Positions 7,762 through 63,677 of a stretch of DNA of 64,000 nt are shown one piece after another; the stretch's first letter is position 1, and each line of letters opens with the position of its first letter. Below the pieces are notes generated by a model, which had not been told where the DNA came from, ran no database searches, and was given only the letters and a program-made list of their open reading frames with translations. The translations under genes and the position numbers were made by a program. The stretch comes from Psammoneis japonica (lineage: Eukaryota), in assembly GCA_008632985.1 (NCBI GenBank), contig QPGO01000013.1, positions 620,001-684,000 on the forward strand. The letters run 5' to 3'.

Positions 7762-7829
7762 ATCCCAAGATGTTTCATCTGACACCCAAATCCACAAATC
7801 ATTGGTGGCTGTGGCAGCAAAAAAGAAAT

Positions 7830-8310
7830 GTTGCCAATTGCCCCAACTCTGGTTGGTCCTTTCTCATTTTGCTCTCAGATTGTCAGTCAAGTGAGGGGAA
7901 AGCATGATGTCTGCCATGGCAAAGGCAGAATCACACAACCCTTGTCAATGCTGAGGACAATTTTGCAAATGGAGAGGCTGCTGTGCCTTTGCCTCTTTTC
8001 CAACCAGTCTGTCACAGGAGACAGGAGACCATGAGTGGGACAGAGGGACAATGTTGCTCAAGGCAATCCTTGAGGTGCTTGCAATTTTTCTTTTTTTCAT
8101 GGGTTTCTGGGACTTTCTCTGGATCTTTTGAGCAGTGTGATTTGGTGCCCATGTCCTCTGCTGCAGCTCAAACATCAAATGTGGCATCAGCAAATTGCCT
8201 CCACCCCAACCGCATGCCATGGTGTTGCCCCTGTCACCATCTTTTGACTTCCTGAGGTTTCTGTTGACTTTGGCATGCTTGATCTTCTCACTGTCATCTT
8301 TTGAGGAGCT
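7830..8310 (-). mobile_element. Second, truncated CRE-like LINE fragment (RLE endonuclease region)
   Basis: 8060-8300 aligns by eye with 10005-10232. The two regions give parallel translations (GGGNLLMPHLMF..SRIALSNI versus GGGNLLMLHLML..SRLVWANI). Confidence 0.7.
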
Positions 8311-42115: not shown

Positions 42116-44053
42116 CTACTCTTGAGACAAAGATACGCGAGGGCGCTTCGCAATTGGTTCCGGAGTAACCTGGGAAGACGTATCCAAGGAGCGAGTATTA
42201 GCGCCCTCTCCGTCACTTTCTGTCATCACTCCATGAGCATCCATGTAGTTGCTTTCAACTTGGGAGAGTTCCGTATTGAGCGTCTCGATCACTTGAAGAA
42301 GCGAAGTCTTGGATACCTCGGGATCGACAAGCAAACTAGAAAGCACCGCTTGCGCCAAGGAGGGTTTCCTGTTTGGTTGTGCTTTGGCCTTCAATGCATC
42401 GAGACGAGATTTCAACGATTGAGCAACGTTTTTCAATGTCTCGAGTGAATCGCCTGGATCATCATCTTGTCCAACCAAGGCTATAAATGCTTGCTCTGAT
42501 TTCCTTGCTTCACCTGCAATTTGAATGGTGGTGGCAAGCTTTCCTTCGAGCGACACCTTTTCGTTCTTGATGGTCAGATTCTCTTCTTCGACCGCCGCAA
42601 GATTCTCCTCCAGTTGCTTTTGCTTCTCGGTGACAGATGTGAGCGAATCCTCAACTGCTTTCTTTTCCTCTTTCAACGAAGAAAGCGACTCCTCAAGTTG
42701 CCGTTTGTCGTTCTCGACTGAGGAAAGATCTGCAGCTTCTGCACCTGAAGAGCAGATCTCCAGCATTTTGGCCACTGCCGCGGACCTACATTTCGCAAAC
42801 CGGGATCGAACACAAAAGGCATAGATTGGGAGACATCCTCCACCGTGGGAATCTTTTTCGTTCATTCCCGCTGGATAAGCTTTCGCAAGAATTTTCATCT
42901 GACTGCCCCAACGGTCAAACCTTGATGCCAAATGAATCGGTAGTTCTCCGGCCCCGTTTCTGAGCTTTGCTCCCTCTGGATCGATGCGTACCAGCTCTTC
43001 CAATACCACTGATTGCTCATATTCGTCCTCCAGCGACGCTGCCACGTGGATTGGCAGATTTCCTTTACCATTCGCGTGTCTGAGGCCACCGCGATATCGC
43101 TCAGCTAGCTCACGGAGCAGGTCCCTTCTAGAAGAATTGTAGGAGGCAGCAACATGAATCGGTAGGTTTCCTTCTTCGTTCTCCTCTTTGAGGCCCTGCG
43201 GATAGGTGTCTGCAAGAAACTTGACAATTTCCGTTCCCTTGCCGTTCCCGTCCCAGAGATCAGCGGCTCTGTGAATTGGTAGATTTCCGTCCTCGTCTTT
43301 GATCTTCACGCCCTCGGGACACGCCTCAGCTAGTTCACGAATTAAGCCGATGTCGGCATATTCCGATATGGCCAAATGAATAGGTAACTCTCCTTTGTCA
43401 TTTTTCTCTAGAAGGCCTTGCCGGTACCTCGTACCTAGCATATTAACAATGTCGATTCCACGACAGCGACGCATTGCAATGTGGATGGGCAGCTCGCCGG
43501 TCTTGTTTGTCTTTTCCAGCCCCTCCGGATAGAGCTCAATCATATCAGCGATTAAGCATATATCTGAAGCTTCCGATGCCGCGAAATGAATAGGTAGGTC
43601 TCCCTCCTTATTTTTCTCTTTCATCCCCGGTGGGTACTTCGTTCCAAGGAACATAACAACTTCCATTCCATTTTTACTGCGTACCGCTATATGGATGGGT
43701 AGTTCACCGGCGTTGTTCTTCGCCTCCAGCCCCTTGGGGTATATGTCAGCTAAGAGTTTAACAACAAAGGGCTCATATTGCAAAACACCTGCCGCCATGT
43801 GGATGGGTAGGTTGCCTTGATTGTTTCTGGTCTTAAGACCATCACGGTAGCTATTCACGAGCGCTTCGACCATGAGACTTGCACCCGCTTTCTTCAAAAT
43901 GTTTCGATTCATCAATAGGCTGTGCAGAGGCAGATTTCCATTTTCATCAGGTTCCTTCGCCAACGCGTCGCCTTTGTCTGAATTGAGAACAACCGTTGCT
44001 TGCTCGAAATTATGAACGCAAATCAAGCGATGGAGTTCGTTTCCTCCTGCCAT
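42116..44053 (-). CDS. Ankyrin-like repeat protein with a C-terminal coiled coil
   Basis: About ten G(N/E/D)LPIHxA repeats spaced about 35-39 aa apart, then heptads; ATG at 44053 (MAGGNELH). Confidence 0.9.
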   Translation of the reverse strand: MAGGNELHRLICVHNFEQATVVLNSDKGDALAKEPDENGNLPLHSLLMNRNILKKAGASLMVEALVNSYRDGLKTRNNQGNLPIHMAAGVLQYEPFVVKLLADIYPKGLEAKNNAGELPIHIAVRSKNGMEVVMFLGTKYPPGMKEKNKEGDLPIHFAASEASDICLIADMIELYPEGLEKTNKTGELPIHIAMRRCRGIDIVNMLGTRYRQGLLEKNDKGELPIHLAISEYADIGLIRELAEACPEGVKIKDEDGNLPIHRAADLWDGNGKGTEIVKFLADTYPQGLKEENEEGNLPIHVAASYNSSRRDLLRELAERYRGGLRHANGKGNLPIHVAASLEDEYEQSVVLEELVRIDPEGAKLRNGAGELPIHLASRFDRWGSQMKILAKAYPAGMNEKDSHGGGCLPIYAFCVRSRFAKCRSAAVAKMLEICSSGAEAADLSSVENDKRQLEESLSSLKEEKKAVEDSLTSVTEKQKQLEENLAAVEEENLTIKNEKVSLEGKLATTIQIAGEARKSEQAFIALVGQDDDPGDSLETLKNVAQSLKSRLDALKAKAQPNRKPSLAQAVLSSLLVDPEVSKTSLLQVIETLNTELSQVESNYMDAHGVMTESDGEGANTRSLDTSSQVTPEPIAKRPRVSLSQE

Positions 44054-44389: not shown

Positions 44390-46326
44390 CAATGTGATGA
44401 GGCTTCTTCTTCATCACTGATTGGTCCCTTGCAAGGTCACAGTGCAGTGGTGGGGGTGTCAAGCAAAGATGGAGGAAATGGCGCTTGAAGTTAAAGATGC
44501 CGTGTGATCAGATGGCATGTTTTTGACTGGATTTTTCGACTGACAGTTGGTGCAGATGATGGCAATGTGCACACAAAGCATGACTTGAAGCAGGCACTTG
44601 GAGGAGGAGTCATAGATGACAGGATGACAGCTGGCACATTGCTGGTTTGGTGCTGCTGGATTGATGTGGCACAACTGGCGCAGTTGTCAACGAGACATCG
44701 GAGCACCTCATGGGAATGTCAAGAGGCAGCTCTTCTCTGAATGTCATTGATGGGTGTCACTCAACAAATCATGGGATTGAGCAGATTGCAATGGCTTTGC
44801 TGCGTCATTTTGTGGTCAGGGCTGCCACTGCTGCAGTGAACAACAAGCGCGCAATTGCACATCCGCGGCCATTGTCCTCACTTGCAGGGTCTTTCATTTG
44901 TGGAAATCAGTGCTGCATTTGCAATGTGATGTTTGGATTTGTGTGCATTTTGTTGGCTAGAATGCAGTGGCATGCAAGCCAATGTGTTGTTGCTGCTGCC
45001 TCACTTGTCATTTGTGGCAAACCGTTCTTTGCTTCTTGTGCAGAAAATCTGACATCATGTTGGCCCATCCAGATGTCAATTTCATGGAACAAAATCATGT
45101 CATTGGAGACTCTGGGTTGACAAAAATTTTCTCTCAACAAGAGTGAGAAAAGTGATGAAGCTTGTTGACTTGGTGGGGCTCATTGTCATGATGACATTGA
45201 GGAACAAGAAGGCCTCACATGTGAGGCAATGGACAGTGTGGAACAATGCTGCACCTCAGATGATGGCTTGCACACAATGAATGTGGGCACATTAAAAACA
45301 AAAAAGCAACACAAAACCACAAGGATCTCTTCTTCACCCATTCTTTACGGTCACTGCAACTCCTGGCATGGCACAGCCTTCTTTGCCATTTCTCTGGGCC
45401 TGTTCCTCATCACTCAACAATGCCCAACTTGTGTGATTCCATTGAGGCAGCCATCAGCAAAGGCAACCAAATCTGCGCCAATGTCCCCAAAGGACAATTT
45501 CCCTCCATCTGACAATGATGCATTGGTGCACCATGCCAAGGAAGGATGGGAGCACATGAAAAAAGCCCAACAGCTCATGGCGCTGCACCCAAAAGAATGT
45601 CTCCAGGATCAAGCTCTTGCAAATGGTGAACAGATCATGCTCTGAAAAAAGGCCATGGGCACTGCCTGGCAAAGAACCCACACCAAGTCTCCATTGCACA
45701 TCCCTGCAAATCTTCTTGTGTGCAGACCAATGCAGCAAAGGGTCCAGCCTGCCAAGAGTCATTTTTGGATGGTTTCATTGAGTCTTCTGTGGATTTTGTC
45801 TGATCAGCGAGAGCCAGCTTGCAGCTCAGCTTGGCTAGATCATCAAACAGTGCTGCACGCAACATGGAACAACACTGGTTCATTTTTGATTGCAAGTGGG
45901 GTGTGCTTGGCAGCAAGGCGACACAGAGAACAAACAGCGGCATGTGCAACAGAGCAGGAAGGATTCATTTTTGATTGCACTTGGGGTGTGCTTGGCAACA
46001 AGGCAACGTAGAGAATGAACCGTGGCTGTTTAGACAAGGTTGGGTGAAAGATGTTGCATCACCGAGGGCTTGGACACATTGCAATCCCTCAATGGTGACA
46101 TCGTGGCTTGTTCTGATTTCTGTTTGGCAAAGGAAGATTCGATCCTGACCACTCCTTTGTTGTGGAGTCAGCGCATTGCTTGATGTTTGAACATTCTTGC
46201 TCAATGGCCTTTCGGACGTTGTCTAACCCAAGTTTTAATTGCTGTTCCAAGGATTGCCAAACTGTGCACTGGAAAGAATCTCACAAGAAGACTTGTGTCT
46301 GGCGACAAAGGCCGAAGAAGAAGTAG
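44390..46326 (+). pseudogene. Hypermutated block 4: MYND-zinc-finger gene relic
   Basis: 46240-46326 reads CCSKDCQTVHWKESHKKTCVWRQRPKKK*, matching the MYND C-terminal half YCSxxCQxxHWxxHKxxC with Y->C. Upstream sequence is frameshifted and TA-depleted and contains repeat copy 2 (44887-45482). Confidence 0.7.
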
Positions 46327-47688: not shown

Positions 47689-49749
47689 GACGCTGTGTTC
47701 TTCTTGCTCAGTGTTTTCGTCGTGTTGTTGGTTGTTGTAACAACAGAGAACAGAGGGGATATTCTACGACTAGCTAGCGACTACGAGTTGCTATGCTCGA
47801 ATACACCTGACAAAATGCCGGTTGAACTGAGAAAGTTCGCCGAAGCTGGCAGATGATTTTCGACATGGGCGTTTATGCTTTTGAATAATGAAAAAATGGG
47901 AATATGAAGGATAATTATTTGACACACACATGAATGACGTGTGAATGAGAAGGAATGAACATCTTCAAATCGGATGTCAATATAAAACTACTGACGGCGT
48001 TTTGCACACCTACCTACCTGCCGCTGCTGCAACATCCGTCCGCTCCGACAAAATCCCAAAATCCACAAGAGAAACGTCACCATCCCGCCAAAGCCCCCCC
48101 TCGCCCTCCTCCCGGTCTGCCTGCTCCTTCTTCCCCAGTTCTAACTGAGGCACACACCATGCGAGTGCGAGGTCAAAGTTTTTTGGACCCACTGCCTCCT
48201 TTTCCGATGGCTCCCTCACCATTCAGTCTCTCAATGATGGCAGGGTCTTCCTCCTTCCTTTTGCTGCAAATCACCTCGGTGGTCTTGGTGCCTCCCTGGC
48301 CCTGGCCCGACTCCTCTCCTGCTTTCCAAGGCTCTGATCCTTTCTGCCTCGCCTTTGACCGCGCTCTCTCACTTTGACCGCTGCTCTTGGTGTTCTTTTC
48401 GTCAACCAGCTGCGCTTGTTGCGATGGCATCTCAGAGCTCCTCTGAGCAGTCAATCCACCGGCTCTGAGGCTTGTGAGCAGCCAGGAAAAATTGTCGAGC
48501 TGCTGCCCTTTCTTGCAGCAAAGCATCCTCAAAGCAAGGTGGTGATGCTGGGCTTGAGGACAAAAATGCCAGGCCGCTGAGCATTGTTGGCAGCTGTTGC
48601 ACATGTTCTCAATGTGCGCTTGCCCCTTTTTCCATGTTGCTTGCACGTGTTTTGCAGCTTTGCACCAGCGGGCTGCCATCTCGTCAAACTGCTGTGACAA
48701 AGCAACATCTGGGAAATGCACCACCAGTTGAGCATTTCAATCAATCCACAAGGAAGTCTGTTGGGGAGCAAGCTCAAGTGTTGCAGGATCTGGTGAAGAA
48801 CAGCATCATCTCTTGTCAACTCAGCACTGTCCTGGCTTTTTGCCGCATTTTCCAAGAACCGCGTGCATGTGACAAAGTGCACTGTGATTCTCTGGTGCAC
48901 CACTGAGCACCTTCAGCACTGACAACAAGACCTCCATTTGGTCTTGCCATCTTCTTGTCAGTGCCAGAGGTGCCCAGCACATTGGAGGCTGCCCCACCAC
49001 CAAAGCAGCTGCTGCTTGGTTGTGGGGCAGGGTCATGCACACTCAGAAGTTGACGTGCAGCACAGCACTCACAAATGGCAGATGTCAGCACATGAAGGTC
49101 AGGCACAAGGTGCAGATGCATTGTCCATTGTGCAAGCTCACACAACTCATGATGCATGCCCTGCCAAGCAAGTGTGTCAACACAATGGCGCGCCACCCAC
49201 AAGCAAACCTTTGTGTTGCCAGGATCCCCCATTTGGATGCCCCCCAAAGCCAAGCCAAGTGAACAAATGCCAAACACCTCATGTGCAACAATCCATGTGT
49301 GTCACACAGCACTCTCAATGAGAACCAAGATGAAGAGGACTTTGCATGAAGCCTTTTGTTTGAGGATGGAAATTTTCAAATGTGCGCACAAAGTGAGCAC
49401 ACAGTTCACACAACTGAACACTCCTCAGCAAAACACACCAACTCAAAAACAACCTCACATTTGTTGTCAACAGCAATTTTTGCAACTGCCTTTAAATTCT
49501 TCATCAAATTTGGTGCACAAGGCACAGCATGTCTCTCCTGAAAGTCTGCTCAGAAACCTGCCAAAATTTTCAAACACCATTCAGCAACACATGCTTGTCA
49601 AACCACCCACAACTGCAGCTGTGAAGAGGATTGCTCCTCCTGCTGTTCCCCTTAAATGTCCTGAGAAAAAAGAGCTGCAGAAAGATGAGTGTCAGATGCA
49701 TGACACTCCATCACTGACAAAAACAGCCCAGTGCACAGGGTGAGTGTGT

Positions 49750-51550
49750 GCTGCTGCACTCCAGCACCAGAACAAGCAAAAAGAGAGTCTGCTCTTCTTG
49801 TGCAACTTGGAGTCTATCACATGTAGACATCACATCATTGGCACACCAGAGAAGCACCTGCTTGACTGTGCACAAGCCATCAGAGGTCAGAGAGTGACAA
49901 CAAAACTGTGTTCAATGCAAGGCAGCAGAATTCACCACTGAGACAAACCAAAGCTTTGCAGAATGCTCAGACACAGTGACCAAAAGCACATCTTTCCCTG
50001 GAAGGTGGAGACATGCTGCAAAGACTTGGGGCTGTGCTGTTGCAAGGGCTGCTGAAGTGAGTGGTTGCTCAAAGCATTTTTCACCCATGGTTGAAGATGC
50101 AGGGGCAGTCTCTGCAACCATCCTGAGGGGCTCATGGAACACACCAGATGTGTTTGAGGAAAAAATGCCAGGTCCATTCCAAGATTTGTCTTTGTGTGTG
50201 TGAACATGGACAACCCACTGACCATCACAAAGGGACTCACTCTTTGATTTGAAGGCCATCTTGAGAAAGTGGACAAGGTTCTTAAAGAGGCAGCAAGAAA
50301 CTGGGTTTGAGGCAAGTGCTGGTGGGCCAATGTTCTGCCTGACTCAGAATTTGGATCATGGCCTTGGATGCAAAGTCACAAGGGAAGGTTGAGGGTTGAA
50401 GCAACTGAGCAAATGCCAAGCCAAAGAACACAAGAAAACTGTGCTCATTTGTGGAAATGACCAGCCAGTGCTGAGATGCACAGCCACAGTGTTTGGACAT
50501 TTTGGTGCCCCATGCTGGACATGCAGGTGGGGCTTCTAAATGGGGGCTGGGTGCACATCAAAGACAAAGCACTCAATGCTGTCAAGTGTGGCACCAGATC
50601 TGAAGAAGTGTTGCTCATGTGCATCCAGACTTCAACAAAAAATTGAAGTGCGCACACAAACATGCCCAAGCATCAACTCAGAACAGTGGCACAAAACAAG
50701 TTAGTTGACCAATGGCCTTTTGCAGCAGAAAGTAAATTGTGCAATCACAGAGAAAATTTCTTGCCTTCAGAGAGACCTGAAAGAACTCAGCTCTGTCCTT
50801 CCCAAACAATGGATCCGCTGGTGGCTGCACACACTGTCTCAAAAACTTTCCCATGCAAAGCCCCAGCTGGCACCAAGCACATCATGTGTTGGCACTTCAC
50901 ATGCAAAAAACACTGGCCAGAGCTGCAGTGTGTTTAAAGGCCACCACAATTTGGTTGCTGATGCACCAAGTCATCTCAACCTCAGCCCACCCATCGAGGC
51001 TGAGAGAGACCCAATGGTTGTAGAAATGATGCAACAAGAGTGCACCCTTTGCATGGGGCTTTCCTGACAGAAAAGTGAAGGAAGCACAGACAATTTCCAT
51101 TGGCTTCAAGAAGATTCAAACTGAGTGGCAAAGGGACAAGTGCCTGTCATGGACAGCTTGTTGGGGGGGATTCGCCATCAAGGCAAAACTGCAAAAGTGT
51201 CTGTTGCCGAGCACTTCTTCCACTGGTGTGGGGTGAGAGCTGCAGCATGACACTCTGCATGCTGCAAGTGCAGAGTGTGTCAGAAGACAAAAAGACAAAA
51301 TTACAAAAGTGAAAAGTCGCTGAAAATGGCAAAAAACTGCTGCATTTGTGGGCAGCTGCAATGACTGGCCCATTGACTGGGTGGTTCAAAACAGCTGAAG
51401 TGTTGACCAGGAGCACTGTGCTGGTGTCATGTCTGTCATTGTCAAGGAAACCTGGCTGCACAGACATCCATGGCCAAGGCAGGTTCTTGTCTTCAATGGA
51501 AAAACAAAAATCTCAGCTGAACCCAGTCCAATTGTGCAAAATGGCTGTGG
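49750..51550 (+). mobile_element. Ty3/gypsy pol relic (RT, RNase H, integrase start)
   Basis: NTPDVFEEKM..FQDL..MDN..ITKG..HLEKVDKVLK (RT); PDFNKK..HTN..KHQL..MAFCSRK (RNase H); ELQC..KGHHNLVADAPSHL; CRVCQKTK; MTGPLTGWFKTAE (integrase). The order is the gypsy order. Confidence 0.85.
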
Positions 51551-54300
51551 TCTGTGGTGATGTCAATCACAGGTGAGCTCCACAGTGGAGCATGTGCACC
51601 AGATGATTGGGGATGCACTGTGGTCATTTTCAGTCATCCAGGGCATGGCTGGAGTTGAAGAATGAAGGTGATTTGCAGAGCAGCCATGTGTTCTCAAGAG
51701 CTGCACTTGCCACACAAGTGGTGGTGCACACTGCTGCTTGAGCAAGCCCAGCGCAGCTGGCATTTGGCAGAGATGCCGGCATGTTGAATGTCACCCACTG
51801 CGCCATGTGAAAATGCACTCAGAACAGAAAGCAGAAGCTTGTCCACACAAACAAGGTGCTGTGGGGCCACTGGCACTTGTCAAACAGGAGCAAAAGACCA
51901 AACATGGGACTGATTGTCATGCAGGCCCTGCCAGAATTGTCTGTGCAAATGACAGTCATGGCACACTGTGCTCTCAAGATTGTGTGCTGACAGACATGTG
52001 CAACATTTGCAGCAGATTGCACCCCATCTTTGGCAAGAAATCTGGTGCTCTCTGCAGCCCTTGCCATTGGGGAGCATGCAGCATGCACACTGACAACTGG
52101 CAAATCCCAGCATGTGTCCTGTGACATGATTGCCAAAGGTGAAGGTCAGGTGCAGATGACTGCATTTCAAAAGCCCACATGACTCACACTCAGTCCCACT
52201 CCACTGAGCAGACATGTTGGCATGAGCAATTGTGCACCAGCTGCAAAAAGTGGGCTAACATCACAACAAGGACATGACCATGCCTTCACAGCTGGCTTCT
52301 TTAAAGTTGTGTGGAGTGAACAAAGACAATGCACACCAAGCCATGCTTTGGGCAGCACCAGAAGATGAGCTTTGTCTGAAGCCTTTTGCTCATGAATGGA
52401 GAAGCTCACAAGCATGCTCTGAGTGAGTGCACAACTCATGCAGCCAAATGAACTGGCCTCACATGGCCATTGTCAACAGCAACCTTTGCCCCCCCTCCTT
52501 GCAATGGAGAGAGACACAAGCATGAGGAGATGCTTTGTTTGCTTTCAGTCAAAGCACCAGGGCATTCACAAGTCTTGCTGCTGTTTGTTGTGACTTGGAG
52601 GAATTTGGTTTTTTGGTCCAGCCAACCATCAAAGTGTTCTTGTTGCACCACACTGCAATGTGTCTGTCTTGGACATCTGCTGCCATCTCTAGAATCTAGA
52701 ACAAGATGGTGACTCACCATTTCAAGGTTGCTCTGGATGCCAATGGCACCAATTGGTGTTTTTGAAGATGCCAAAGCCTCTCCAATGTTGTCAGGCCATT
52801 GCTGCAAGACCAGCAGTTGCAGACAGTCTGCTTGGTTTGCAGAGAACCAAACACCTCTCCAATGCTCAGTTTTGAAACATCACTGAATGCATTGCATTGT
52901 GTCAGCTCAGGCCACCAGCTTGCTGAAGGTGGCTGGTTCATTGGCAATGAGGCATGGAAGAGTGCAGAAGTTGCACAGGACTTCTGTGAGCTCTTGATTT
53001 GGTTTGGTGTGAGTGCAGTGCTTGGGCAAGTTTGGGGTGCAGTCCACTGGGCTTGTGAGCCCCTTTTCTCCTGGGGTGCCAAATGACACATGGCACATCT
53101 TGTCTTGCACTTCCACTGCCTCCCCTTGTGGGCAAGAGCACCAGCATGTGAACCACTGGAAAGTTTGCAATCAAGTTTCTTGGCTTTGTCTGCTGGCAAT
53201 TTGAGGACTTGTTGCTCCATGCCATCAAAGATCCTCTGACAGAGCATTTTGTTGTGGATTGCCCACACTCCTTTGCCTTTTCCCCATTTCTTTTACAGAT
53301 GAGATGGGATTGTCTTGCACAGCTTTCCATCAAGGAGCACACCCTGTGAGTGGTCAAGGAAGATTCAGTGGGCACAACCTCTGTGTGGAATGGCAGTGAC
53401 AGGTGACAGCAATGGAAGCTTTTTGAGTGGATTGTTCTTTGTGACATTCCTCTTGTGAAGAAGTGACAAACTGCTTTCCTTTTCCTTGTCTTGCATTTCT
53501 TGTTCACAGCAGTGCAAGCTGCACCTGACTCTCTTGCCAAGTGGTGGCATCCTCAAGTCAGGGTGGCCTTGCGCACATTGTTTCATTTCCATTCAGTGCC
53601 CACATCCATGGACGGGCACCCATTTTTTGCATGACACCCCCCCCCCCCCCCCCCCATGGTGCAATGAGGCCACCCAGGTGTTGTTCACACTTACACTGTG
53701 TGCCATTTTGGGGCAAATTGCTTTCCCTGTGTGCCCAACCACCATCTGTTTTGTTTGTGTGCATGCTGGAGCTGCCCCCATTGCTCCCACAGCAATTTGT
53801 GTCATTGTCTGGGGCAGCGCCACACTCTTTGCATGTTGTCAATGGTGGAGTTGCAAGCTGCAGAGGCCTGTGGCATGATTTGCTCAAATGCAGCAGGTGC
53901 TGGCCTTCTGCTGCAGGAGGCATGTGATGCCAATGGAGGGTGGCCACAGTTGTGCCCTCTCCCAGCATGGCACCAGTGGGGTGCTCCTGTCATTCACACC
54001 TGCACTTCATCAGGTTCTTTGCCAGTGCTGCTGTGATGCCTCTAGGTGCAGCTTGTCAAGGAGCTTTTTGTGTGAGACTCTGAGTCAAGATCTGTGGAAG
54101 CAGAGGGGGCATCTGGGTTCTTTTTGAGCTGCCAGCAGTGTGGAGCACACCTGCCCTTCAGGCACCATGAGCTGTGCTGCCTTTGGCAGATCAAAGGTTG
54201 GGGGGTGCTGCCAAACTTGTCAATGCCCAAGTGTTTTGCAACTCTGCCAAGCACCACATCCAGGAACTTCTTCTTCTGCACCAACAGCTCAGTGAGCTCT
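51550..54300 (-). mobile_element. Possible Ty1/copia pol relic
   Basis: QRIFDG..P.DKAKKLDCK..G resembles the post-integrase LRxFG..KRxKLDxK segment. VHCLCSLHTTLKKPAVKAW resembles the RT motif SLYGLKQA..W and lies downstream of it. Very degenerate. Confidence 0.4.
53637..53655. repeat. Poly-C tract (19 nt)
   Basis: Seen directly. Confidence 0.9.
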
Positions 54301-54909
54301 CCAGTGTTTTGGACAACATTGGCATCTGTTTGCTCTGTTGTTCATGTTGCTCTCCTGGCTGTGTTGGTGCTGCTTGGTTTGGTGGCAGAAAGGTGGTGAG
54401 AAGTCAGCCGGCATGTCAAGGAGTGTTGTCTGTTGTGTGGCTGCTGATTGACAAGAGCAGTGCTCCAGCATTTGGACCACTCGCGACAGACTTGGCTGGC
54501 CGTTTGGAGGAAAGATGCCTTTGCAGTTCACCCCCTCTGTCATCTTTGGACTCTCAGATGTTGAAGTTGTCATCCTTCTTCTGTGATGACAGAAAAGCAT
54601 GAGCACCATTGCACAGCAGTGTTCACTGGAAGTCTCTGTTGTCATGTCACGGCACGATCCAACACAAACTGAGGCCGGCTCATTCTTCGTGGAATGCCAA
54701 GCAACTGCTCACGATTTATTGGTCTGACCGTGACACGTGCAGAGCTCAAAAGCGGTCTAGGATGAAAAGGAGAGAAAAGACAGGAGGTGCTCCAGCTCAC
54801 TCACATCATCTATTCTTTCTTCTCTAAGTATTTTTTTCCTAAACTGTTCTTTTGTATGCTGGTGGTAGCTCTGAAAAAAAAAAAATCACGCAAATCACGA
54901 ACTGAAAAA

Positions 54910-57900
54910 CTAAGTGCAGTCATCTATTGGACTGCTGTTTGGCGTAGGCCTGGGAGGGTTAACACACACCTGCGGTGCAGACGTTGGTCCGTAGTTTGCT
55001 GAATTGGTGCAATTGAAGCCTCCGTCACAACAAAGGGGATCACCAGAAGATTTGCAAATTAGGCCAGTCGTGTTTGCAATAATGTCTGCACACGAAGGCA
55101 TGTTTTCGATCACGTTATCTGAAATGACACAAAAGGTAATGGGATAGGCTGGTGCTTGCCCCTGAGATGGACCAAGACAACCTGAGCCACAGTCAGTGCT
55201 GCAAGCTGTTGTGGCCTGAGCTCCCCAAGCACCTTGGACGCATCCTTGTGCTTCAGGACAACATTTGGCACGGTTGTTACGATCCCCGGTCATTGCTAGA
55301 AAGGCGTCATCGCATATTTGTTCCCTCTCGGCAGTGCAGGATCCAGGATCTTCAGAGGGCGCCGTCGAGGGGGTGACAGATGGGACATCACTAGGAGTTG
55401 CGGATGGAGTGACAGAGGGCACATCACTGGGTGCCGCACTCGGGACTGTAGATGGAGTAGCAGAAGGCACCGTCGAGGGTGTTAGAGACGGGACATCACT
55501 CGGAACTGCCGATGGTGTTGTTGAAGGCATATCACTAGGAGCCGCACTAGGGACTGTAGATGGAGCAGTGGAGGGCACCGTCGAGGGGGTGAGAGACGGG
55601 ACATCACTCGGAAGTGCGGATGGTGTTGTTGAAGGCATGTCACTCGGAGCAGTGCTCGGGACTGCAGATGGAGCAGTAGAGGGCACTGTCGAAGGTGTCA
55701 AAGACGGTACGTCACTTGGCTCTGTGGATGGTGTTGTTGAAGGCACGTCACTAGGAGCCGCACTCGGGACTGTAGATGGAGTAGCTGAAGGCACCTTTGA
55801 GGGGGTGACTGATGGGACATCACTCGGAACTGCGGATGGAGTGGCAGAGGGCACATCACTGGGAGCTGCACTCGGGACTGTAGATGGAACTGTAGAGGGC
55901 ACTGTCGAAGGGGTCAAAGACGGTAGGTCACTTGGCTCAGTGGATGGTGTTGTTGAAGGCTCGTCACTAGGAGCCGCACTGGGGACTGTAGATGGAGTAG
56001 CTGAAGGCACCGTTGAGGGGGTGACTGATGGGACATCACTCGGAACTGCGGATGGAGTTGCAGAGGGCACATCACTGGGAGCTGCACTCGGGACTGTAGA
56101 TGGAACTGTAGAGGGCACTGTCGAAGGGGTCAAAGACGGTACGTCACTTGGCTCAGTGGATGGTGTTGTTGAAGGCACGTCACTAGGAGCCACACTCGGG
56201 ACTGTAGATGGAGTAGCTGAAGGCACCGTTGAGGGGGTAACTGATGGGATATCACTCGGAACTGCGGATGGAGTGGCAGAGGGCACATCACTGGGAGCTG
56301 TACTCGGGACTGTAGATGGAGCATTAGATGGCGCTGTCGAAGGGGTCACAGATGGCGTGTTACTGGGTTCTGCTGAAGGTGTTGTTGAAGGCACTTCACT
56401 AGGAGCCGCACTCGGGACTGTAGATGGTGTAGCTGAAGGCACCGTTGAGGGGGTGAGTGAAGGGGCCAATGATGGCATATTACTAGGTTCAGAGGATGGA
56501 GCAGACGATGGTACGTTGCTTGGCACCGCACTTGGTATTTCTGATGGTGTAGACGATGGTGCACTACTCGGTACAGCTGATGGAGTCGTGGACGGTGCTG
56601 TACTCGGCATAGCTGAAGGTGCCCGTGACGGTACATCACTTGGCGTAGACGACGGGGTGGTTGATGGTGCGTTGCTAGGAGCTACACTCGGGGCTTTAGA
56701 CGGGGTGGTAGATGGCACCGTTGAAGGTGCAACCGATGGCACATTGCTCGGTTGAGAGGATGGAGCAGATGATGGTACTTTACTTGGCACCGCACTCGGT
56801 AGATGTGATGGTGTCAGGGATGGCGCACTACTCGGTGCTGCTGATGGAGTGGTGGACGGTACTGCACTCGGCATAGCTGAAGGTGCACGTGACGGTACAT
56901 CACTTGGCGTAGACGACGGGGTGGTTGATGGTGCGTTGCTAGGAGCTGCACTCGGGGCTTTAGACGGGGTGGTAGATGGCACCATTGAAGGTGGAACCGA
57001 TGGCACATTGCTTGGTTGAGAGGATGGAGCAGATGATGGTACTTTACTTGGCACCGCACTCGGTAGTTGCGATGGTGTCGAGGATGGCGCACTACTCGGT
57101 GCTGCTGATGGAGTGGTGGACGGTACATCACTTGGCATAGCTGAAGGTGCACGCGAGGGTGCATCACTGGGCGCAGACGATGGGGTATCTGATGGTGCAT
57201 CGCTAGGAGCTGTACCCGGGGCTTCAGACGGGGTAGTAGATGGCACCGTCGAAGGCGCAACCGATGGCACATTGCTTGGTTCAGAGGATGGAGCAGATGA
57301 TGGTACTTTACTTGGCACCGCACTCGGTAGATGTGATGGTGTCAGGGATGGCGCACTACTCGGTGCTGCTGATGGAGTGGTGGATGGTACATCACTTGGT
57401 ATAGCCGAAGGTGCACGTGACGGCACATTACGTGGCAAAGACGATGGAGTGTCTGATGGTGCATCGCTAGGAGCTGTACCCGGGGCTTCAGACGGGGTAG
57501 TAGATGGCACCGTCGAAGGCGCAACCGATGGCACATTGCTTGGTTCAGAGGTTGGAGCAGACGATGGTACTTTACTTGGCACCGCACTCGGTAGTTGCGA
57601 TGGTGTCGAGGATGGCGCACTACTCGGTGCTGCTGATGGAGTGGTGGAAGGTACATCACTTGGCATAGCTGAAGGTGCACGTGACGGTACATCACTTGGC
57701 TTTGACGACGGGGTGGTTGATTGTGCATTGCTAGGAGCTGCACTCGGGGCTTTAGACGGGGTGGTAGATGGCACCGTTGAAGGTGCAACCGATGGCACAT
57801 AGCTTGGTTGAGAGGATGGAGCAGATGATGGTACTTTACTTGGCACCGCACTTGGTATTTCTGATGGTGTCAACGATGGCGCACTACTCGGTGTAGATGA

Positions 57901-60204
57901 TGGAGTCGTGGACGGTACACGTGACGGTACATCACTTGGCATTGTGGATGTCATACGTGACGGCACATTACTCGGCACAGAAGATGGAGGTGTTGATGGT
58001 ATAGCACTTGGACCTGCACTGGGGGCTTCGGACGGCGTGGTAGAGGGGAGTGATGAAGGTTTAAGCGATGGTTCAGCCGATGGATTCTTCGAAGGCACAT
58101 CGCTTGGTTCAGACGATGGAGTTGACGATGGTGCATTGCTTGGTTGCGAGCTTGGTTCTTTGGATGACAGTAAAGATGGCGTGCCACTCGGTTCAGCTGA
58201 AGGAGCTGTTGACGGGAAAATGCTAGGAGATCCACTCGGAGCTAACGAAGGCATAGTTGCTGGCATATCGCTTGGTGTGGAGGATGGTGTAAATGAAGGT
58301 GTATTGCTTGTGTCCAAAGATGGCTTCATTGACGGTATTTCGCTGGGCACCACACTTGGCAATTTGGATGGGTTTATAGACGGCAAAACGGATGGTGTCA
58401 ATGATGGTACACCACTGGGATTAGCCGATGGTACTGTCAATGGCATGTTGCTTGGAAACACACTAGGCGCCATGGACGGAGTACTTGACGGTGTAGTGGA
58501 TGGAGTAAGTGAAGGCATACCACTCGGTTTGGTCGAGGGAGTCGTAGACGGAACAGAGCTTGCTATTGTGCTCGGGACTGTGGAAGGACTTGTCGATGGT
58601 ACCGTTGAAGGCCGCTGTGACGGCTCACCACTTGGGACAGACGATGGCATCGTAGATGGTGCATCACTGGGAAGCGCACTCGGACCTCTTGAAGGTGATA
58701 TGGATGGTACATCACTGGGTTGAAATGATAGCTTTGCTGATGGTAGACTACTAGGGACCGTGCTTGGAACCGTCGAAGGTGTTGTTGATACATCAGCAGT
58801 TGGTGTTCTTGATGGCATATTGCTCGGTACATTTGATGGAATTGTTGATGGCACATCACTTTGCTCTGAGGTTGGAAATCCTGATGGAATTGCGGAGGCC
58901 ACGACGGAGGGCCTCAAAGATGGTACACGACTAGGTTCAGCCGATGGAGTTGTAGATGGCATATTGCTTGGAAATACACTAGGTGCCACGGATGGAGTAG
59001 TTGATGGCACAGTGGATGGATTAATTGAAGGCATATCGCTCGGTTTGGTTGAGGGATCGGCAGACGGAGCGGAGCTTAGAATTGTACTGGGGAATGCAAA
59101 AGGACTAGTTGATGGCTCCGTTGAAGGTCCCAAAGAAGATACATCACTAGTAGGAGTCGTGCTTGGCAATGATGAAGGTGCTCTTGATGGCAAGGCTGAA
59201 GGTCGCTGTGACGGTTTGCCACTAGGGAGAGACGACGGTATTGCGGACGGTTCTTCACTGATAGGTGCACTCGGAAATGCTGATGGTGATGCGGACTGTA
59301 CATCGCTTGGCTTGAATGATGGATTCGTCGACGGTAATTGACTAGTAGCCACACTCGGCGCCGTCGAAGGAGTAGTACTTGGCGTTATTGAAGGCACACC
59401 ACTCGGTGAATCTGACGGAAGTGTTGATGGCACGACACTGGGCAATAAGCTCGGAGATCCTGTCGGAATTCTAGAGGGCACTATAGATGGCATCAATGAT
59501 GGCGCAAAAGTTGGTTCAGCCATTGGCATGATTGATGGCGTGGAACTTGGAAGTGTACTTAGCGCCATTGAGGGGATAGTTGATGGAAAAGTAGATGACG
59601 GAGCTTGACTGGGCATTCTTGACGGAAATGTCGAAGGGATATTGCTAGCTGTAGATGTTGGGGCTTGGCTTGGTATATTCGATGGGACAGCCGATGGGTT
59701 TTCGCTTGGAGAGTTAGAAGAAATAGCACTAGGAAAGGTTGAAGGTGCTCGGCTTGGAACCACGGATGTTGCGCCTGAAGGCGCATTGCTGGGAATGATC
59801 AATGTCGGCGTGCTAGATGGAAGGTTCGTTGGTGTCCTAGAAGGAGCTGTAGTTGGCTCATCGTCTGGGATAAGACGTGAAGGTGGAGGTGAAGGTCTCC
59901 TGGTGCTACTTAGAGGTCTTGTTGGTCTCCGAGTAGGTGATCCTATAGTAGGCCGACTTCTGGAGAAATTGCCCCGTGTAGAAGACCGTAAGCTTGATGG
60001 CGATTTTTCAACATATTCTTGATTTCCTGATGGATCAATGCTTACATTTCTCGTTCTTTTTCTTGGCTTTGTCGTTCGCTTTGTTCCTCTGGATGTGGTT
60101 CGATCCATCAAATTGTTATGCCGCGTCCGTCCTAGCCTTTCGGCAGCCAATGCAGTACAAACACCAATTGCTAATAGAAGTAGGATAGCAAAAATGCGCA
60201 TCAT
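54910..60204 (-). CDS. Giant secreted mucin-like P/S/T-rich protein with a Cys-rich C-terminal domain
   Basis: Single ORF of about 1764 aa from ATG 60204: signal peptide, basic R/T-rich segment, hundreds of PSxx tetrapeptides, then a Cys-rich tail of about 140 aa. Confidence 0.9.
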   Translation of the reverse strand: MMRIFAILLLLAIGVCTALAAERLGRTRHNNLMDRTTSRGTKRTTKPRKRTRNVSIDPSGNQEYVEKSPSSLRSSTRGNFSRSRPTIGSPTRRPTRPLSSTRRPSPPPSRLIPDDEPTTAPSRTPTNLPSSTPTLIIPSNAPSGATSVVPSRAPSTFPSAISSNSPSENPSAVPSNIPSQAPTSTASNIPSTFPSRMPSQAPSSTFPSTIPSMALSTLPSSTPSIMPMAEPTFAPSLMPSIVPSRIPTGSPSLLPSVVPSTLPSDSPSGVPSITPSTTPSTAPSVATSQLPSTNPSFKPSDVQSASPSAFPSAPISEEPSAIPSSLPSGKPSQRPSALPSRAPSSLPSTTPTSDVSSLGPSTEPSTSPFAFPSTILSSAPSADPSTKPSDMPSINPSTVPSTTPSVAPSVFPSNMPSTTPSAEPSRVPSLRPSVVASAIPSGFPTSEQSDVPSTIPSNVPSNMPSRTPTADVSTTPSTVPSTVPSSLPSAKLSFQPSDVPSISPSRGPSALPSDAPSTMPSSVPSGEPSQRPSTVPSTSPSTVPSTIASSVPSTTPSTKPSGMPSLTPSTTPSSTPSMAPSVFPSNMPLTVPSANPSGVPSLTPSVLPSINPSKLPSVVPSEIPSMKPSLDTSNTPSFTPSSTPSDMPATMPSLAPSGSPSIFPSTAPSAEPSGTPSLLSSKEPSSQPSNAPSSTPSSEPSDVPSKNPSAEPSLKPSSLPSTTPSEAPSAGPSAIPSTPPSSVPSNVPSRMTSTMPSDVPSRVPSTTPSSTPSSAPSLTPSEIPSAVPSKVPSSAPSSQPSYVPSVAPSTVPSTTPSKAPSAAPSNAQSTTPSSKPSDVPSRAPSAMPSDVPSTTPSAAPSSAPSSTPSQLPSAVPSKVPSSAPTSEPSNVPSVAPSTVPSTTPSEAPGTAPSDAPSDTPSSLPRNVPSRAPSAIPSDVPSTTPSAAPSSAPSLTPSHLPSAVPSKVPSSAPSSEPSNVPSVAPSTVPSTTPSEAPGTAPSDAPSDTPSSAPSDAPSRAPSAMPSDVPSTTPSAAPSSAPSSTPSQLPSAVPSKVPSSAPSSQPSNVPSVPPSMVPSTTPSKAPSAAPSNAPSTTPSSTPSDVPSRAPSAMPSAVPSTTPSAAPSSAPSLTPSHLPSAVPSKVPSSAPSSQPSNVPSVAPSTVPSTTPSKAPSVAPSNAPSTTPSSTPSDVPSRAPSAMPSTAPSTTPSAVPSSAPSSTPSEIPSAVPSNVPSSAPSSEPSNMPSLAPSLTPSTVPSATPSTVPSAAPSEVPSTTPSAEPSNTPSVTPSTAPSNAPSTVPSTAPSDVPSATPSAVPSDIPSVTPSTVPSATPSTVPSVAPSDVPSTTPSTEPSDVPSLTPSTVPSTVPSTVPSAAPSDVPSATPSAVPSDVPSVTPSTVPSATPSTVPSAAPSDEPSTTPSTEPSDLPSLTPSTVPSTVPSTVPSAAPSDVPSATPSAVPSDVPSVTPSKVPSATPSTVPSAAPSDVPSTTPSTEPSDVPSLTPSTVPSTAPSAVPSTAPSDMPSTTPSALPSDVPSLTPSTVPSTAPSTVPSAAPSDMPSTTPSAVPSDVPSLTPSTVPSATPSTVPSAAPSDVPSVTPSATPSDVPSVTPSTAPSEDPGSCTAEREQICDDAFLAMTGDRNNRAKCCPEAQGCVQGAWGAQATTACSTDCGSGCLGPSQGQAPAYPITFCVISDNVIENMPSCADIIANTTGLICKSSGDPLCCDGGFNCTNSANYGPTSAPQVCVNPPRPTPNSSPIDDCT
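55360..57960 (-). repeat. Higher-order coding repeats: 216-bp period (about 55.5-56.4 kb) and 264-bp period (about 56.5-57.9 kb)
   Basis: gtcaaagacgg-type anchors at 55697, 55913, 56129, 56345; gtt(g/c)agagg anchors at 56487, 56751, 57015, 57279, 57543, 57807. Confidence 0.85.
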
Positions 60205-61114
60205 GTTGAGGACCGCTTTTGACAACCAGGAATGATATGCTGATCATCGGCATGTTTATTGTGATGAGATATTACGTGATGTTGTTTTGTCGTTTACCGT
60301 TAAAATTCAAAAACTGTTGAATGAAAAACAAAAATGTCTACGACATAACGGACATTTTCTTACTCTTCAACACTAACAAAGAATTTAAAATATTTCTCAT
60401 ACAAGGTCGTGATAAATAAGACGGCAAATCATGTAATTGTATTATATATATACACAAATAAAAATTTTTCTTGTAGCTTAGGTGCCGTTGCACGTCAGAA
60501 AGTGCTCAATTGTGATAGTGACTTTTTATATCTACAGTACAGTACCGACACTTCTTCACAACATACGGTAGACTGTACTGTAGGTATCATCATACCGGCA
60601 CTGCGAGCAGGTACAATTTTTTGGAAGAGCAATGACATGCGATGTCAGCAGCGCTTCTCGTCCAGTTGCTATGTTCTTGTTATCGCTCTCGCAGTTGTGT
60701 TGTTTTGCTGCTCTTAAATTTGTTGTGATGTCCAGTCAAACAATGTCCAGGATGGCTCGAATTTCTCCCAATGAACTCATGACAAGAAAACGCTGCAAAG
60801 TCGCCAAAGATGATGCCTCAACGACAGGGAGTGTCTTTTGGATCATTCATCGTGAAGGAAGGACAGAGTGACGCAAACGATGAATGGCCTTGTGCACTGG
60901 AGTGTTGTGTGGAATTCTGAGCAAAAGAATGAGAGCCGTCACACGACCGTGATGGGAAGACGAAGCGTTTGTGGACATCCAGACCCTTTCAGCTGGTCTT
61001 CTGATGTTGCGAAGAAGAGCGCTCGGGAAGAATTGCTGGGGCCACTGCTAGATGCCCAGCACATTAACTGCCAATGTGAACGATGCATGACACAGACTGT
61101 GTCACAAGACATTC

Positions 61115-63200
61115 TCAAGCTGCTCCTCCTGCGGACTCCGTGCTCATGCGCCTTGTGCTCTCGTTGTCTGGCAAGATGGAAAAAATGTGGTCATCCTCTG
61201 CTTCTCTGGCCTTGAGCTTGTCGGGCATTTCTTTGATAAAGGCAGCTGAATTTGGTGGTGTCGATTTGTTCTTTGATTCCCTGATGGCTCTTTCAATTGT
61301 CTCGATGGCAATCCGGTCTCCGTCGGGAAGCCGGCTGGCAAAATCCTTTGCACGCGCCGCCATTTCCTTGTCATCTAAAACCTGCCTGACCAGATCGCCT
61401 GCGCCGTTGAGTTCATCCGGTGCCATGACTCCAATGCCTGCATCGACTGTGCGTTGAGTGCTAAAATGCTGATCCGCAAAGGCCGGACAGCAAATGAGTG
61501 CGTGGCCACCCTGGATGTCCCACGTGGCTGACAAAGACTCGATTCTTTCCACTCTTGAGCACGTCAGCTTGCAGGATGATTTGGATGCAGAGATGTCCAT
61601 TGAGATGCTCTAGATGACCTCCGGACTTGGATGTTGGAGAACTGCCAATGGCAGCATCGAAGATTGGATGCAGCCGCTTTTGCTCCGATGGCCTCATGCA
61701 GCATGCATGCAGACAAAAGGCCATTTTTGTCATGCCCTTTGTGACATTTAAAGGCTGCAACACGTCGCCGTGACACATTGGCTCTTGTTGGCAGCTGTGC
61801 ATTGCACTCCTCCCCATGTGTCACGCATCCACATGCGGCTCTTTGCCAACGTGCACTGACGCTGCACGGTTTTGGCGGAACAGTGTGGGCACGTGCGAAG
61901 GAACACACAGAACTGCACAGAGTTTTGCGCATTCGACAGTGATCAACATTGCTGCAGACAACTCCCACTCAGGGTTCCTAACCCCTGGCCTCCTGCCCAA
62001 TGGTTGCGATGAACCACTCCGCTGTGAATTCACAACGCAGCATGCGTGCAGACAAAAGGTTGTTTTTGTCACGCCCTTTGTGACATTTAAAGGCTGCAAC
62101 ACGTCACCGTGATACATCAACTCTTGTTGGCAGCTGTGCATTGCACTCAAGGTGAAGAGGGTCGGGCACTGACCACCGTCGTAGGATGCCAGGCTGCGAG
62201 GAAGGTCGCCTGTCACAGCCTTTGCCTCATTCTCATTGAGCTCTGCCCTGGTGCCAAAGCAGGTGCAAATGATGCCACTGTTGGCCTTTTGCAGCCACAG
62301 ATTCAAGTCGTGGTCCATTTCAACAGCAGGGCCATTGGGGGCACTCAAGGTGCCAATGCATCTTGTGGACGCCTTGAGGCAACACTCTTCTCATCCGAGA
62401 ATGGGGCCACACCACCTGCGCACATGCAAGGATGCCGCCTTTGCCAGCCACAATGTCCATTTGTATTCGGTGCGAGACCATGTCGTGTTCGACATGCATT
62501 TGCAATTCTGCCTGATTTTCTGCACTTGCAGGTGCTCACCAAACCGTCCAAGAACTGCCAAACGAGTTGGACCAGGCACCGAAAGACATTTTTGGGAAGA
62601 CAGGTGGAGTGAGCACCAACGTGAGGGTGCGAGGTGAATGTCCGTGGCAGGAACCACGTCTTGAAGTCTCCACGGCAAGCACAAGGATCGTGCGGAAAAG
62701 ATGAAAACACAACGATGGGAGCGTCGACATGATCTCCCAAGTCACTCACAGTGTTGCCTGCAGTGCCAGCCATCCCATGGAGGGGCGCCATTGCATCGTA
62801 GTCACCTTTCTTGATGAGCTCCTTGATTGGCTCATGCATGCCTTCTTGTGACAACAGTGGGGTCTCTGGCACTGCATCTGCAAGTGGGAATGGGTTGAAC
62901 AAATGCTGCTGCCAGAACGTTTTCCAAGAGTTGGGGTTTGTGACACCCACTTCATTGAGGCACTTGGTTGAGCTGCTTGCACCAACAATGATGCATTTGA
63001 TGTTTTTCACAGCTTGGGTTTCGTGAACAACAAGGTCGTGTGACTTTCCCGAGGCAGTCGTGAGAGCAACTTGGTGTCCCGCGGCGCCGCAAACACAAGC
63101 AAGCTTTGACACCGCACAGAGATGGCTGGTCATGTCATCAGAGACGATGAGAACTCGTGATGGATTTTGAGTTGAAGTGACAGTCATTTCAGCTTTTGCA
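61115..63200 (-). pseudogene. UDP-glycosyltransferase (GT1) pseudogene within hypermutated block 6 (about 60730-63440)
   Basis: RVLIVSDDMTSHL (N-terminal His), LNLWLQ..GIICTCFGT, LQADVLKSGKNRVFVSHVG, GGHALICCPAFADQ..DAGIG (PSPG-box-like). Frameshifted and interrupted by a TRIM. Confidence 0.85.
61697..62145 (-). mobile_element. TRIM (miniature LTR element, 449 bp) inserted in the UGT gene
   Basis: 110-bp direct repeats at 61697-61806 and 62036-62145; outer ends TG...CA; 4-bp TSD CTCA (61693-61696 and 62146-62149); minus-strand polypurine tract GGGGAGGAG (61815-61807) abutting the 3' LTR. No PBS recognised. Confidence 0.85.
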
Positions 63201-63677
63201 CAATTCATTTTTGTTCTGTTGTCGAGGATTTTTTTGTCACCCTCCAATCCATCATGTGCAGCTTGTTGTCGTGCAGAACTGCGGGTTCGCTCACCACCCA
63301 CGCATTTTGTGAGGTTCACTTCCTGTCACAAAATGGACGCAATGCGACACTCAAGGAGTCTGAATGGCTCATAGAGAAGTGAACTTCACTCCGCGACACA
63401 CTGCACGGACGTCGCTGCCTGTGCGATTGCATTTTTCGTGTCTGGCGCCATTACTGTAGGGCCCTACTCTAGCTAGCTAGTGTTTGTGAGAGGTTCACAC
63501 TTCACTCGGGACTGACTTTTGTACATTCATTGAAAAGATTCAGACATGAAGGATCTTTATTATCGCAATCAGAACTTCCCCCCAACCCCCCACCCGCATT
63601 CAATCAACTCACCCTTCACAAGACAAAGAACAAGAAACAAGAACTGCCAAAGATGATTCACCTTTCAGCATGACACC

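Follow-up and report, generated by a model that had tools for sequence, protein, structure and literature searches.

The stretch of DNA considered here, hereafter the window, covers 64,000 nucleotides (64 kb) of contig QPGO01000013.1 of the diatom Psammoneis japonica (positions 620,001 to 684,000 of the forward strand, assembly GCA_008632985.1), and the whole assembly (91.4 Mb) was searched for copies and gene families. A light-harvesting protein encoded in the window has, among its best matches that carry a name, almost exclusively diatom sequences. Its subject is the last of six TA-poor blocks, block 6, which holds a UDP-glycosyltransferase (UGT) pseudogene and, within it, a small long terminal repeat (LTR) retroelement, TRIM. 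Outside the blocks, the observed/expected ratio (o/e) is about 1.0-1.1 for CG and about 0.55 for TA, and blocks 1-5 are CG-poor as well as TA-poor (CG o/e 0.06-0.29). With separate hidden Markov models (HMMs) for TA and CG, 60716-63451 (block 6) is assigned to the TA-low state and to a CG state that is not low; its edges, from HMM and change-point fits, delimit a TA-purged and partly CG-decayed domain spanning the whole UGT gene plus some hundreds of bases to either side. TA o/e is 0.09 vs. a background of 0.58, and CG o/e 0.66 vs. 1.09. Over 60730-63440, 14 TA are found where the background o/e predicts 89 (Poisson p 4e-23) and 121 CG where it predicts 196 (p 7e-9); leaving TRIM aside, TA o/e is 0.08, CG o/e 0.67 and the per-base CG 0.80 of background. 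In other words, the CG of block 6 is down by some 20-40%, that is partly decayed and not intact, with retention still far above that of TA (Fisher p 2e-13). A first-pass annotation of this DNA had described the block as rich in CG with about 13 TA: the TA count and the CG/TA contrast stand (10/1, 4/0 and 7/0 in 61313-61410, 62690-62730 and 63050-63115), but the CG content is reduced. To its question of whether CG o/e had sunk as low as TA o/e, the answer is no.

The UGT pseudogene is read on the reverse strand in pieces, namely the N-terminal domain in a single frame at 62393-63199 (22 relatives at E<=0.001, best 3e-41; tblastn and composition), a middle piece at 62146-62360 after a frameshift near 62390 (tblastn frame -3 to -2), and the C-terminal pieces at 61262-61696 with a second frameshift near 61510 (tblastn to protein P0122, E 8e-17 and 1e-12; the DNA being single-copy). 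The whole aligns to residues 13-512 of P0122, i.e. to both domains, P0122 itself matching PF00201 at E 1e-11, and PF00201 is present in four of the five scanned relatives. The longest open reading frame (ORF) of the pseudogene had no Pfam match and a word-based protein search for a UGT homologue returned none among 698 candidates, but the protein alignments bear out the earlier reading of a UGT relic. The N-terminal piece, of 244 aa, contains 1 Tyr, 12 Cys and 13 His. Of ten conserved Tyr, a single one is kept and eight have become His or Cys, whereas 154 of 245 other conserved columns are kept (p 0.001); conserved Arg are kept in 6 of 14 cases and replaced by Cys or His in 5. The nearest paralogue in the genome lies on contig C13 at 24-43% identity and polarisation at the DNA level was dropped for want of a close paralogue or orthologue. 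Outside TRIM, block 6 is single-copy in the genome, with a flat read depth of about 61-62 in run X1, the contigs of which differ from the assembly around block 6 at 4 of 3886 and 2 of 1882 bases (X1 may be the assembly's own source sample).

TRIM (61697-62145) is a non-coding mini LTR retroelement of 449 bp with TG...CA ends, inserted within the UGT coding sequence and presumably oriented on the reverse strand, as judged from its purine tract. Its terminal repeats occupy 61697-61806 and 62036-62145 (self-BLAST 61698-61809 vs. 62037-62148, 91%), and the target duplication is of 4 bp (61693-61696 and 62146-62149). Across the family, the terminal repeats are about 110 bp long, a purine tract is present and the 4-bp target duplication is identical in 41 of 50 copies. 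A 21-base LTR pattern has 442 matches in the genome; the set used for rates derives from the first 100 of them, with 68 loci examined, 8 partial loci and the duplicates excluded, and 50 distinct full copies retained besides the window copy. An initial set (the best 40 of 320 candidates, one duplicate dropped) was biased towards the alleles of the window and was not used for rates. One copy, L098 (G000:C9:30200-32800), is newborn: it has 35 TA in 446 bp, retains 34 of its 35 TA-class sites and all 23 CG-class ones, and its LTRs are identical at 109 of 110 positions. Judging from the site lists, the sole LTR difference is apparently a TA vs. CA site, perhaps a first hit. The flank in which L098 sits is purged (CG 0.11, TA 0.02). 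This copy served as ancestor stand-in for polarising the other 50 TRIM copies, after exclusion of one TA private to it and of one site already altered in its left LTR.

Polarised in this way, 50 TRIM copies keep 220 of 1694 TA sites (13%) and 1059 of 1197 CG sites (88%), a TA:CG ratio of loss rates of 16.4 (bootstrap confidence interval (CI) 10-28), and the claim that TA erosion runs faster than CpG decay is thus upheld. The window copy keeps 3 of 35 TA and 18 of 24 CG sites (p 2e-7) and has three new CG. A long interspersed nuclear element (LINE) with a reverse transcriptase domain gives a ratio of about 13, with 281 of 570 TA and 982 of 1038 CG kept in six copies, those of the ten fetched loci that share the 3.2 kb. 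As in decay driven by 5-methylcytosine (5mC), changes of CG to TG/CA are in excess in the repeats (G>A at CG 0.055 vs. 0.004-0.007 elsewhere in the TRIM copies). In 8 of the 50 TRIM copies, all 24 CG are intact while 18-31 of 34 TA are lost (3-16 kept), from which it follows that TA loss does not require completed CpG mutation, in agreement with the earlier contention that it is no by-product of completed 5mC deamination. The TA sites of the 50 copies have become TG (836), CA (612), CG (14) or transversion products (12), i.e. 99% of the 1474 changes are transitions. New CG arose in these copies from older TG/CA sites (68/3526) and from former TA sites (14/1694); in block 6 they account for 3 of 21 CG in TRIM and a predicted 8 or so of 102 in the rest, about 8-14%, so that the suggested renewal of CG is real but minor. 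A separate mutator of TpA, acting after insertion and faster than CpG decay, is on this evidence almost certain.

The LTRs of one retroelement copy are identical at insertion. Within single TRIM copies, paired LTRs nonetheless show CA vs. TG at TA sites in 175 of 544 comparisons and agree as often as independence predicts; linkage between sites is at the null level (r2 0.034 vs. 0.031), and all four gametes occur at 240 of 253 site pairs. Each copy has hits on both strands with no strand clustering (z variance 0.87; 630 adjacent same-strand pairs vs. 635 expected), and TA loss is mildly patchy in space (p 0.005 for TRIM, 0.01 for LINE). The discordance of the LTRs, the unlinked sites and the lack of strand runs together imply a change made in chromosomal DNA, on both strands and through many independent events. 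Editing of A to I in retroelement RNA before reverse transcription, which could invoke the ADAR-like preference for a 5' U discussed in the available text of a recent preprint (Mettrop et al., bioRxiv 10.64898/2026.01.13.699255) and a slight sense-strand excess in LINE in three of four contexts, is refuted by those 175 opposite-strand products; with both strands hit in every copy, the TRIM excess falling on the inferred antisense strand (0.63) and a single-copy host gene purged in place, it is virtually untenable. It is scarcely less improbable that low TA was inherited from TA-poor source elements, or reflects selection or an assembly artefact. Coding DNA in the window does go down to a TA o/e of about 0.25 (31400-32600, 42400-43100), but the newborn TRIM is TA-rich and TA-intact inside a purged flank, the LINE source carried 95 or more TA sites over 3.2 kb, conserved Tyr were destroyed in the UGT and the X1 contigs agree with the assembly, by which this explanation is refuted as a general cause. 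In LINE copies L152, L154, L155 and L157, the 18 or so TA sites closest to one end have hardly been altered, these sites being hit in L156 and L159, and this contrast is a mutation front inside the element. Among the differences listed between run X1 and the assembly in blocks (51022, 60822, 48618, 61689, 45724) are TA>TG, CG>TG, CG>CA, TG>CG and CA>CG, hinting that both processes are ongoing but too few to count. Single-contig differences outside repeats number at least eight, again too small a set to use.

The sequence context of the changes is sharply defined. Per A in TRIM, A>G amounts to 0.44 at TA, 0.029 at AA, 0.022 at CA and 0.005 at GA, and within TA to 0.55 at TAC, 0.51 at TAT, 0.35 at TAG and 0.29 at TAA, a 3' pyrimidine being favoured in every A>G class. 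In 166 TA-low genome tiles, TA survival is 0.54 for TTAA and 0.004-0.015 for RTAY classes (R, purine; Y, pyrimidine). Same-strand TAA>TGG is in excess (23/214 vs. 14/452, p 2e-4), of which a two-step route could explain part, and the reverse change, TG/CA to TA, is seen at 2 of 3526 sites in TRIM copies. Such a profile makes adenine deamination by an adenine deaminase the favoured chemistry, with modest confidence. The mutator converts A:T to G:C, the A of 5'-TA-3' becoming G on either strand; it acts on chromosomal DNA after insertion or silencing, in local patches and many rounds, with a preference for a 3' pyrimidine and weak action at CA and AA. The likeliest agent would be an enzyme of TadA/ADAT2 type turning adenine into inosine, natural TadA recognising U(-1)A(0)C(+1)G(+2) according to the available text of PMC10586758.

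Rather than an enzyme acting on unmodified adenine, a base mark at TpA in heterochromatin, be it N6-methyladenine on the A or 5-hydroxymethyluracil or 5-formyluracil on the T, could mutate to G:C. The same pure transitions on both strands would be expected from such a mark, and a preference for R-T-A seen from the T is the same thing as T-A-Y seen from the A. This alternative is nevertheless unlikely: a passive mark would hardly attain 16-fold the pace of CpG decay, the graded hits at CA and AA under the same 3'-pyrimidine rule and the TAA>TGG excess suit an enzyme, and no Tet_JBP match was found in the genome, a weak point as the control search was blank too. Quite improbable is a third view in which TA loss is after all a by-product of 5mC deamination, through repair patches at T:G mismatches filled by an error-prone polymerase, with the CG often restored. 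It would account for the domains shared by the two losses (see below), for the correlation between TA kept and CG kept across TRIM copies (rho 0.57) and the patchiness, and it could draw on the 27 matches to PF00145 (C5-methyltransferase) in the genome. Yet DNA polymerase eta, which targets WA (W, A or T) in antibody hypermutation, yields a large share of transversions, and these are 12 of 1474 changed TA sites here; TA exceeds AA 15-fold; TA sites less than 100 bp away from a lost CG show no excess of loss (55 vs. 971 sites, p 0.25); same-strand runs are absent; and the doses of TA and CG change do not rise in proportion.

Some of the PF00145 matches have themselves a place in this landscape. 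Copies of C5-methyltransferase at L139 (G000:C301:34166-37723), L140, L141 and L145 (G000:C297) lie in TA-purged, CG-rich DNA (TA o/e 0.00-0.07, CG 0.68-0.82), some with stops, and are possibly element- or virus-borne. At L142 (G000:C34:42155-45664), a chromodomain ORF adjoins the match, possibly a chromomethylase-like gene.

How far the two losses share the same domains was seen in 368 tiles, 208 of them contiguous (C14 stretch, 104 kb) and 160 belonging to loci chosen because their flanks are CG-rich. Normal TA (o/e >=0.35) occurs in none of 79 CG-poor tiles, and 39 CG-rich tiles (CG>=0.7) are TA-empty (TA<0.2), 2 of the 208 contiguous and 37 of the 160 picked ones; TA and CG losses are therefore spatially nested. 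About 35% of the contiguous 104 kb is TA-purged (72/208 tiles). Each of the 51 flanks of TRIM copies is low in TA (o/e 0.00-0.28), and their CG ranges from 0.09 to 0.83. Multi-kb TA-poor tracts with CG o/e 0.8-1.1 occur on C353, C1 and C7. Apparent duplicated segments on different contigs, L021/L022 (G000:C112, C94) and L125/L126 (C41, C317), are possibly haplotigs.

In the window, the same nesting can be followed at the margins of blocks 1-5. The cores of block 1 (1-12016; CG o/e 0.06, TA o/e 0.03) and block 5 (48683-54408; CG o/e 0.07, TA o/e 0.05, measured over 48600-54480) are old and serve as comparison for block 6. Four fringes with CG but no TA had been listed by the first-pass annotation, and the TA deficit is significant in three: 12020-12410 (0 vs. 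9.0 expected), 48150-48580 (0 vs. 11.4) and 54480-54740 (1 vs. 9.0). In these three, CG is itself lowered (o/e 0.46-0.60). The fourth, at the left edge of block 3 (39540-39720; 2 TA vs. 6.0 expected, p 0.064), is weak and its TA and CG edge intervals overlap. With change-points, TA loss extends 308-667 bp further out than CG loss at four of nine edges, delimiting fringes at the right edge of block 1 (12017-12424, TA-purged with CG partly kept; 0 TA and 17 CG in 12020-12410), at the right edge of block 3 (41304-41731, by HMM and change-point, absent from the earlier list), and at the left (48016-48682) and right (54409-54716, change-point edge with a TA deficit) edges of block 5. At four other edges the two are indistinguishable (+115, +89, -18, -123), and at the left edge of block 2, where the change-point fit is spurious, it is CG whose edge the HMM puts further out, by 161 bp; for block 6, the CG change-points are not meaningful. 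Plotted separately as had been suggested, TA and CG thus part with TA outermost at four of nine edges and not at the other five. Within the left fringe of block 5, positions 48074-48289 form one end of a LINE-family copy; polarising 48074-48288 by comparison with a young LINE copy gave no information, there being 10 CG and 2 TA sites at 73% identity.

Two observations concern repeats in the window. A gene at 54910-60243 on the reverse strand, for a Pro/Thr/Ser-rich tandem-repeat protein of 1777 aa, adjoins blocks 5 and 6 and is unpurged, with normal TA, so that repetition alone is no trigger for the mutator. Blocks 3 and 4 have a 600-bp repeat in common at 70% identity (39587-40187 vs. 44885-45482).

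The fringes and the CG-rich tracts raise the question of whether block 6 is young or simply beyond the reach of methylation. In the latter case, the TA mutator would reach DNA with little or no 5mC, and the fringes would be its overhang, as the four outermost TA edges and the multi-kb tracts with CG o/e 0.8-1.1 could suggest. Such an overhang is not needed and is rather unlikely, since CG is lowered in block 6 and in three of four fringes, and since one fringe corresponds to a LINE copy's end, for which a difference in age can account. Besides, the TRIM of the window lost 6 of 24 CG vs. a mean of about 2.8 per copy, which indicates that CG decay is active in block 6, and TRIM CG loss is independent of the CG of the flank (rho -0.10, p 0.48, n 51); being no lower in CG-rich domains, CG loss speaks for a block that is young and not protected. 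That block 6 is young and not unmethylated, as first proposed on composition, is accordingly well favoured by these sequence comparisons. As for what came first, the CG retention of the window TRIM (0.75, CI 0.53-0.90) overlaps that of the UGT relic (0.6-0.8) and gives no order, but the five youngest TRIMs are all in old domains and no clear halo surrounds four LINE copies whose flanks are mostly normal; the balance therefore leans towards a TRIM that landed in an already dead UGT gene, rather than one that nucleated the domain.

Taken together, the best explanation, which we hold to be probable, is that two separate mutational processes work in the same silenced domains. The first is a slow decay of CG to TG/CA, presumably by 5mC deamination; the second is the fast A:T to G:C mutator described above. 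With TA loss running at about 15 times CG decay in young sequence, a newly silenced locus would become TA-empty while still CG-rich, and block 6 would be such a locus, a dead single-copy UGT gene bearing a TRIM and TA-purged throughout. The single copy suggests that targeting would be by chromatin domain and not by homologous pairing. The interpretation of the first-pass annotation is supported and its observation partly confirmed; the pattern is secure and the enzymatic step is what we infer from it.

Several points weigh against this interpretation or its details. The UGT is polarised at the protein level alone, with named pieces at 24-55% identity. The TRIM context rates derive from a single element with its 34 TA and 24 CG sites, which makes the sites pseudo-replicated, and the YCGR class of CG loss used below comprises three sites. 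Damage to the A and damage to the paired T look alike in sequence. Moreover, a search for deaminases (PF00383), matched by 9 of 11 candidates, revealed no unusual deaminase and no visible expansion. Among these matches are what we take, from motifs, to be one ADAT2-like gene (on contig C26) and one TadA-like gene. Both are expected in any eukaryote for tRNA editing and speak neither for nor against a deaminase. At L129 (G000:C79:87006-90176), a deaminase-fold domain is fused to a 2-oxoglutarate-Fe(II) dioxygenase in one frame of 491 aa; it probably belongs to nucleobase metabolism, though it is unusual enough to merit a place among the candidates.

Over longer times, the two processes did not keep a fixed proportion. 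A constant ratio of 16:1 was rejected, as equilibrium predicts 2-9 TA in the oldest tiles vs. 57 observed, and CG/(TG+CA) of 0.157 (LINE 0.144) vs. 0.015 observed. YTAR survival is 0.26 where CG survival is 0.06, 0.27 where it is 0.63, and 0.28 in TRIMs; the TA dose of old tiles is about 1-2 times that of CG-rich tiles (six context classes), and that of the oldest blocks about 1.5-2 times the young one, whereas the CG decay of the oldest blocks is more than 10 times that of young ones. Old flanks adjacent to TRIMs are slightly more purged (YTAR 0.15-0.18 vs. 0.20-0.26). CG loss in TRIM depends on context, fastest at RCGY (15%) and slowest at YCGR (2%, 3 sites). In 38 kb of the oldest DNA, 175 CG are left (64 RCGY, 90 mixed, 21 YCGR), where CAY>CGY gains from one dose of TRIM size would give 149 (72/70/7) and ancestral survivors should be 45% YCGR. 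Survivors alone were rejected (chi-square p 6e-18); the leftover CG being unlike survivors, the evidence goes against one early burst at each locus. The fit is better for a single dose together with a few survivors (p 0.12) than for a steady state (p 0.004, few sites), and new CG are estimated at 60-81% of the 175. The simplest reading is an ancient loss of CG from the old blocks and a late arrival of their dose of A>G. A recent genome-wide acquisition or switch-on of the A>G mutator in this diatom lineage is a serious possibility, though short of probable; a natural, chromatin-targeted adenine base editor would then have been laid over older, CpG-decayed heterochromatin, with a similar dose in each silent domain. 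An early burst followed by low steady activity is about as credible, and other histories make up the remainder. If the onset was recent, sister lineages should have heterochromatin that is CG-poor and TA-normal, and the comparison would expose the gene.

Beyond this locus, the separation of the TA process from CpG decay provides two clocks which jointly date silent domains, and the o/e values of TA and CG would by themselves suffice to chart the silent chromatin of this genome and how old it is. DNA adenine deamination is an activity mostly known from engineered editors, and the context fingerprint (5' T far above A or C, then G; 3' pyrimidine above G above A), together with the signs of a capped and possibly recent dose, constitutes an aid in hunting for a natural DNA adenine deaminase. 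No report of TpA loss in a diatom was found in the literature searched, outside of which lie most subscription papers.

Among known systems, repeat-induced point mutation (RIP) of fungi makes dinucleotide-specific transitions that destroy elements and can leak into genes. It changes C:G to T:A mostly at CpA, creates TpA and needs paired duplicates. Here, unlike in RIP, TpA is removed (TG/CA to TA at 2 of 3526 sites), strand-clustered runs are absent and, instead of a duplication, block 6 outside TRIM is single-copy, a lost partner or leakage from TRIM being possible; the available text on RIP likewise describes mutagenesis focused on repeats (PMC2621366). Regarding diatoms, CG methylation of transposable element (TE) islands is due to DNMT5a (Hoguin et al., 2023, PMC9998398), in an accessible text that contains neither "TpA" nor "deamination", and "TpA" does not occur in that of PMC12344493 either. 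Compared with this DNMT5 system, none of the 27 PF00145 matches here is specifically assigned to DNMT5, and 5mC at block 6 is presumed. TadA/ADAT2 and TadA-derived editors resemble the present process, in the available text of PMC10586758, by A to I (read as G), U/T at -1, C at +1 and bystander edits, and differ in that the natural substrate is a tRNA loop and that base editors are engineered and guide-targeted.

The closest parallel is Bigelowiella natans, where the available text of the preprint describes a TpA-only A:T>G:C hypermutation of integrated DNA of nucleocytoplasmic large DNA viruses (NCLDV) as well as virophages, with a local rate raised about 1000-fold, on in only some lines, and for which an ADAT2-type deaminase was proposed, not shown (Mettrop et al., bioRxiv 10.64898/2026.01.13.699255). 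In both cases, TpA becomes TpG/CpA on both strands of chromosomal DNA through near-pure transitions, in regional clusters where TpA is scarce and CpA and TpG abound, with TE domains enriched and single-copy targets. The differences are instructive as well: rates were measured directly there and by phylogenetic inference here; the 3' context, the off-target contexts and the apparently capped dose are found here and not in the available text of the preprint; the overlay on CpG decay is seen here, "CpG" and "diatom" not occurring in the preprint text at hand; the targets here include a host pseudogene, block 6 being such a gene plus a TRIM; and the purge is near complete here (o/e 0.03-0.09) vs. 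0.45 in the NCLDV region. From one preprint on a rhizarian, TpA-specific A-to-G hypermutation is thus extended to a stramenopile host, a diatom, in which it is near complete and destroys a single-copy host gene as well.

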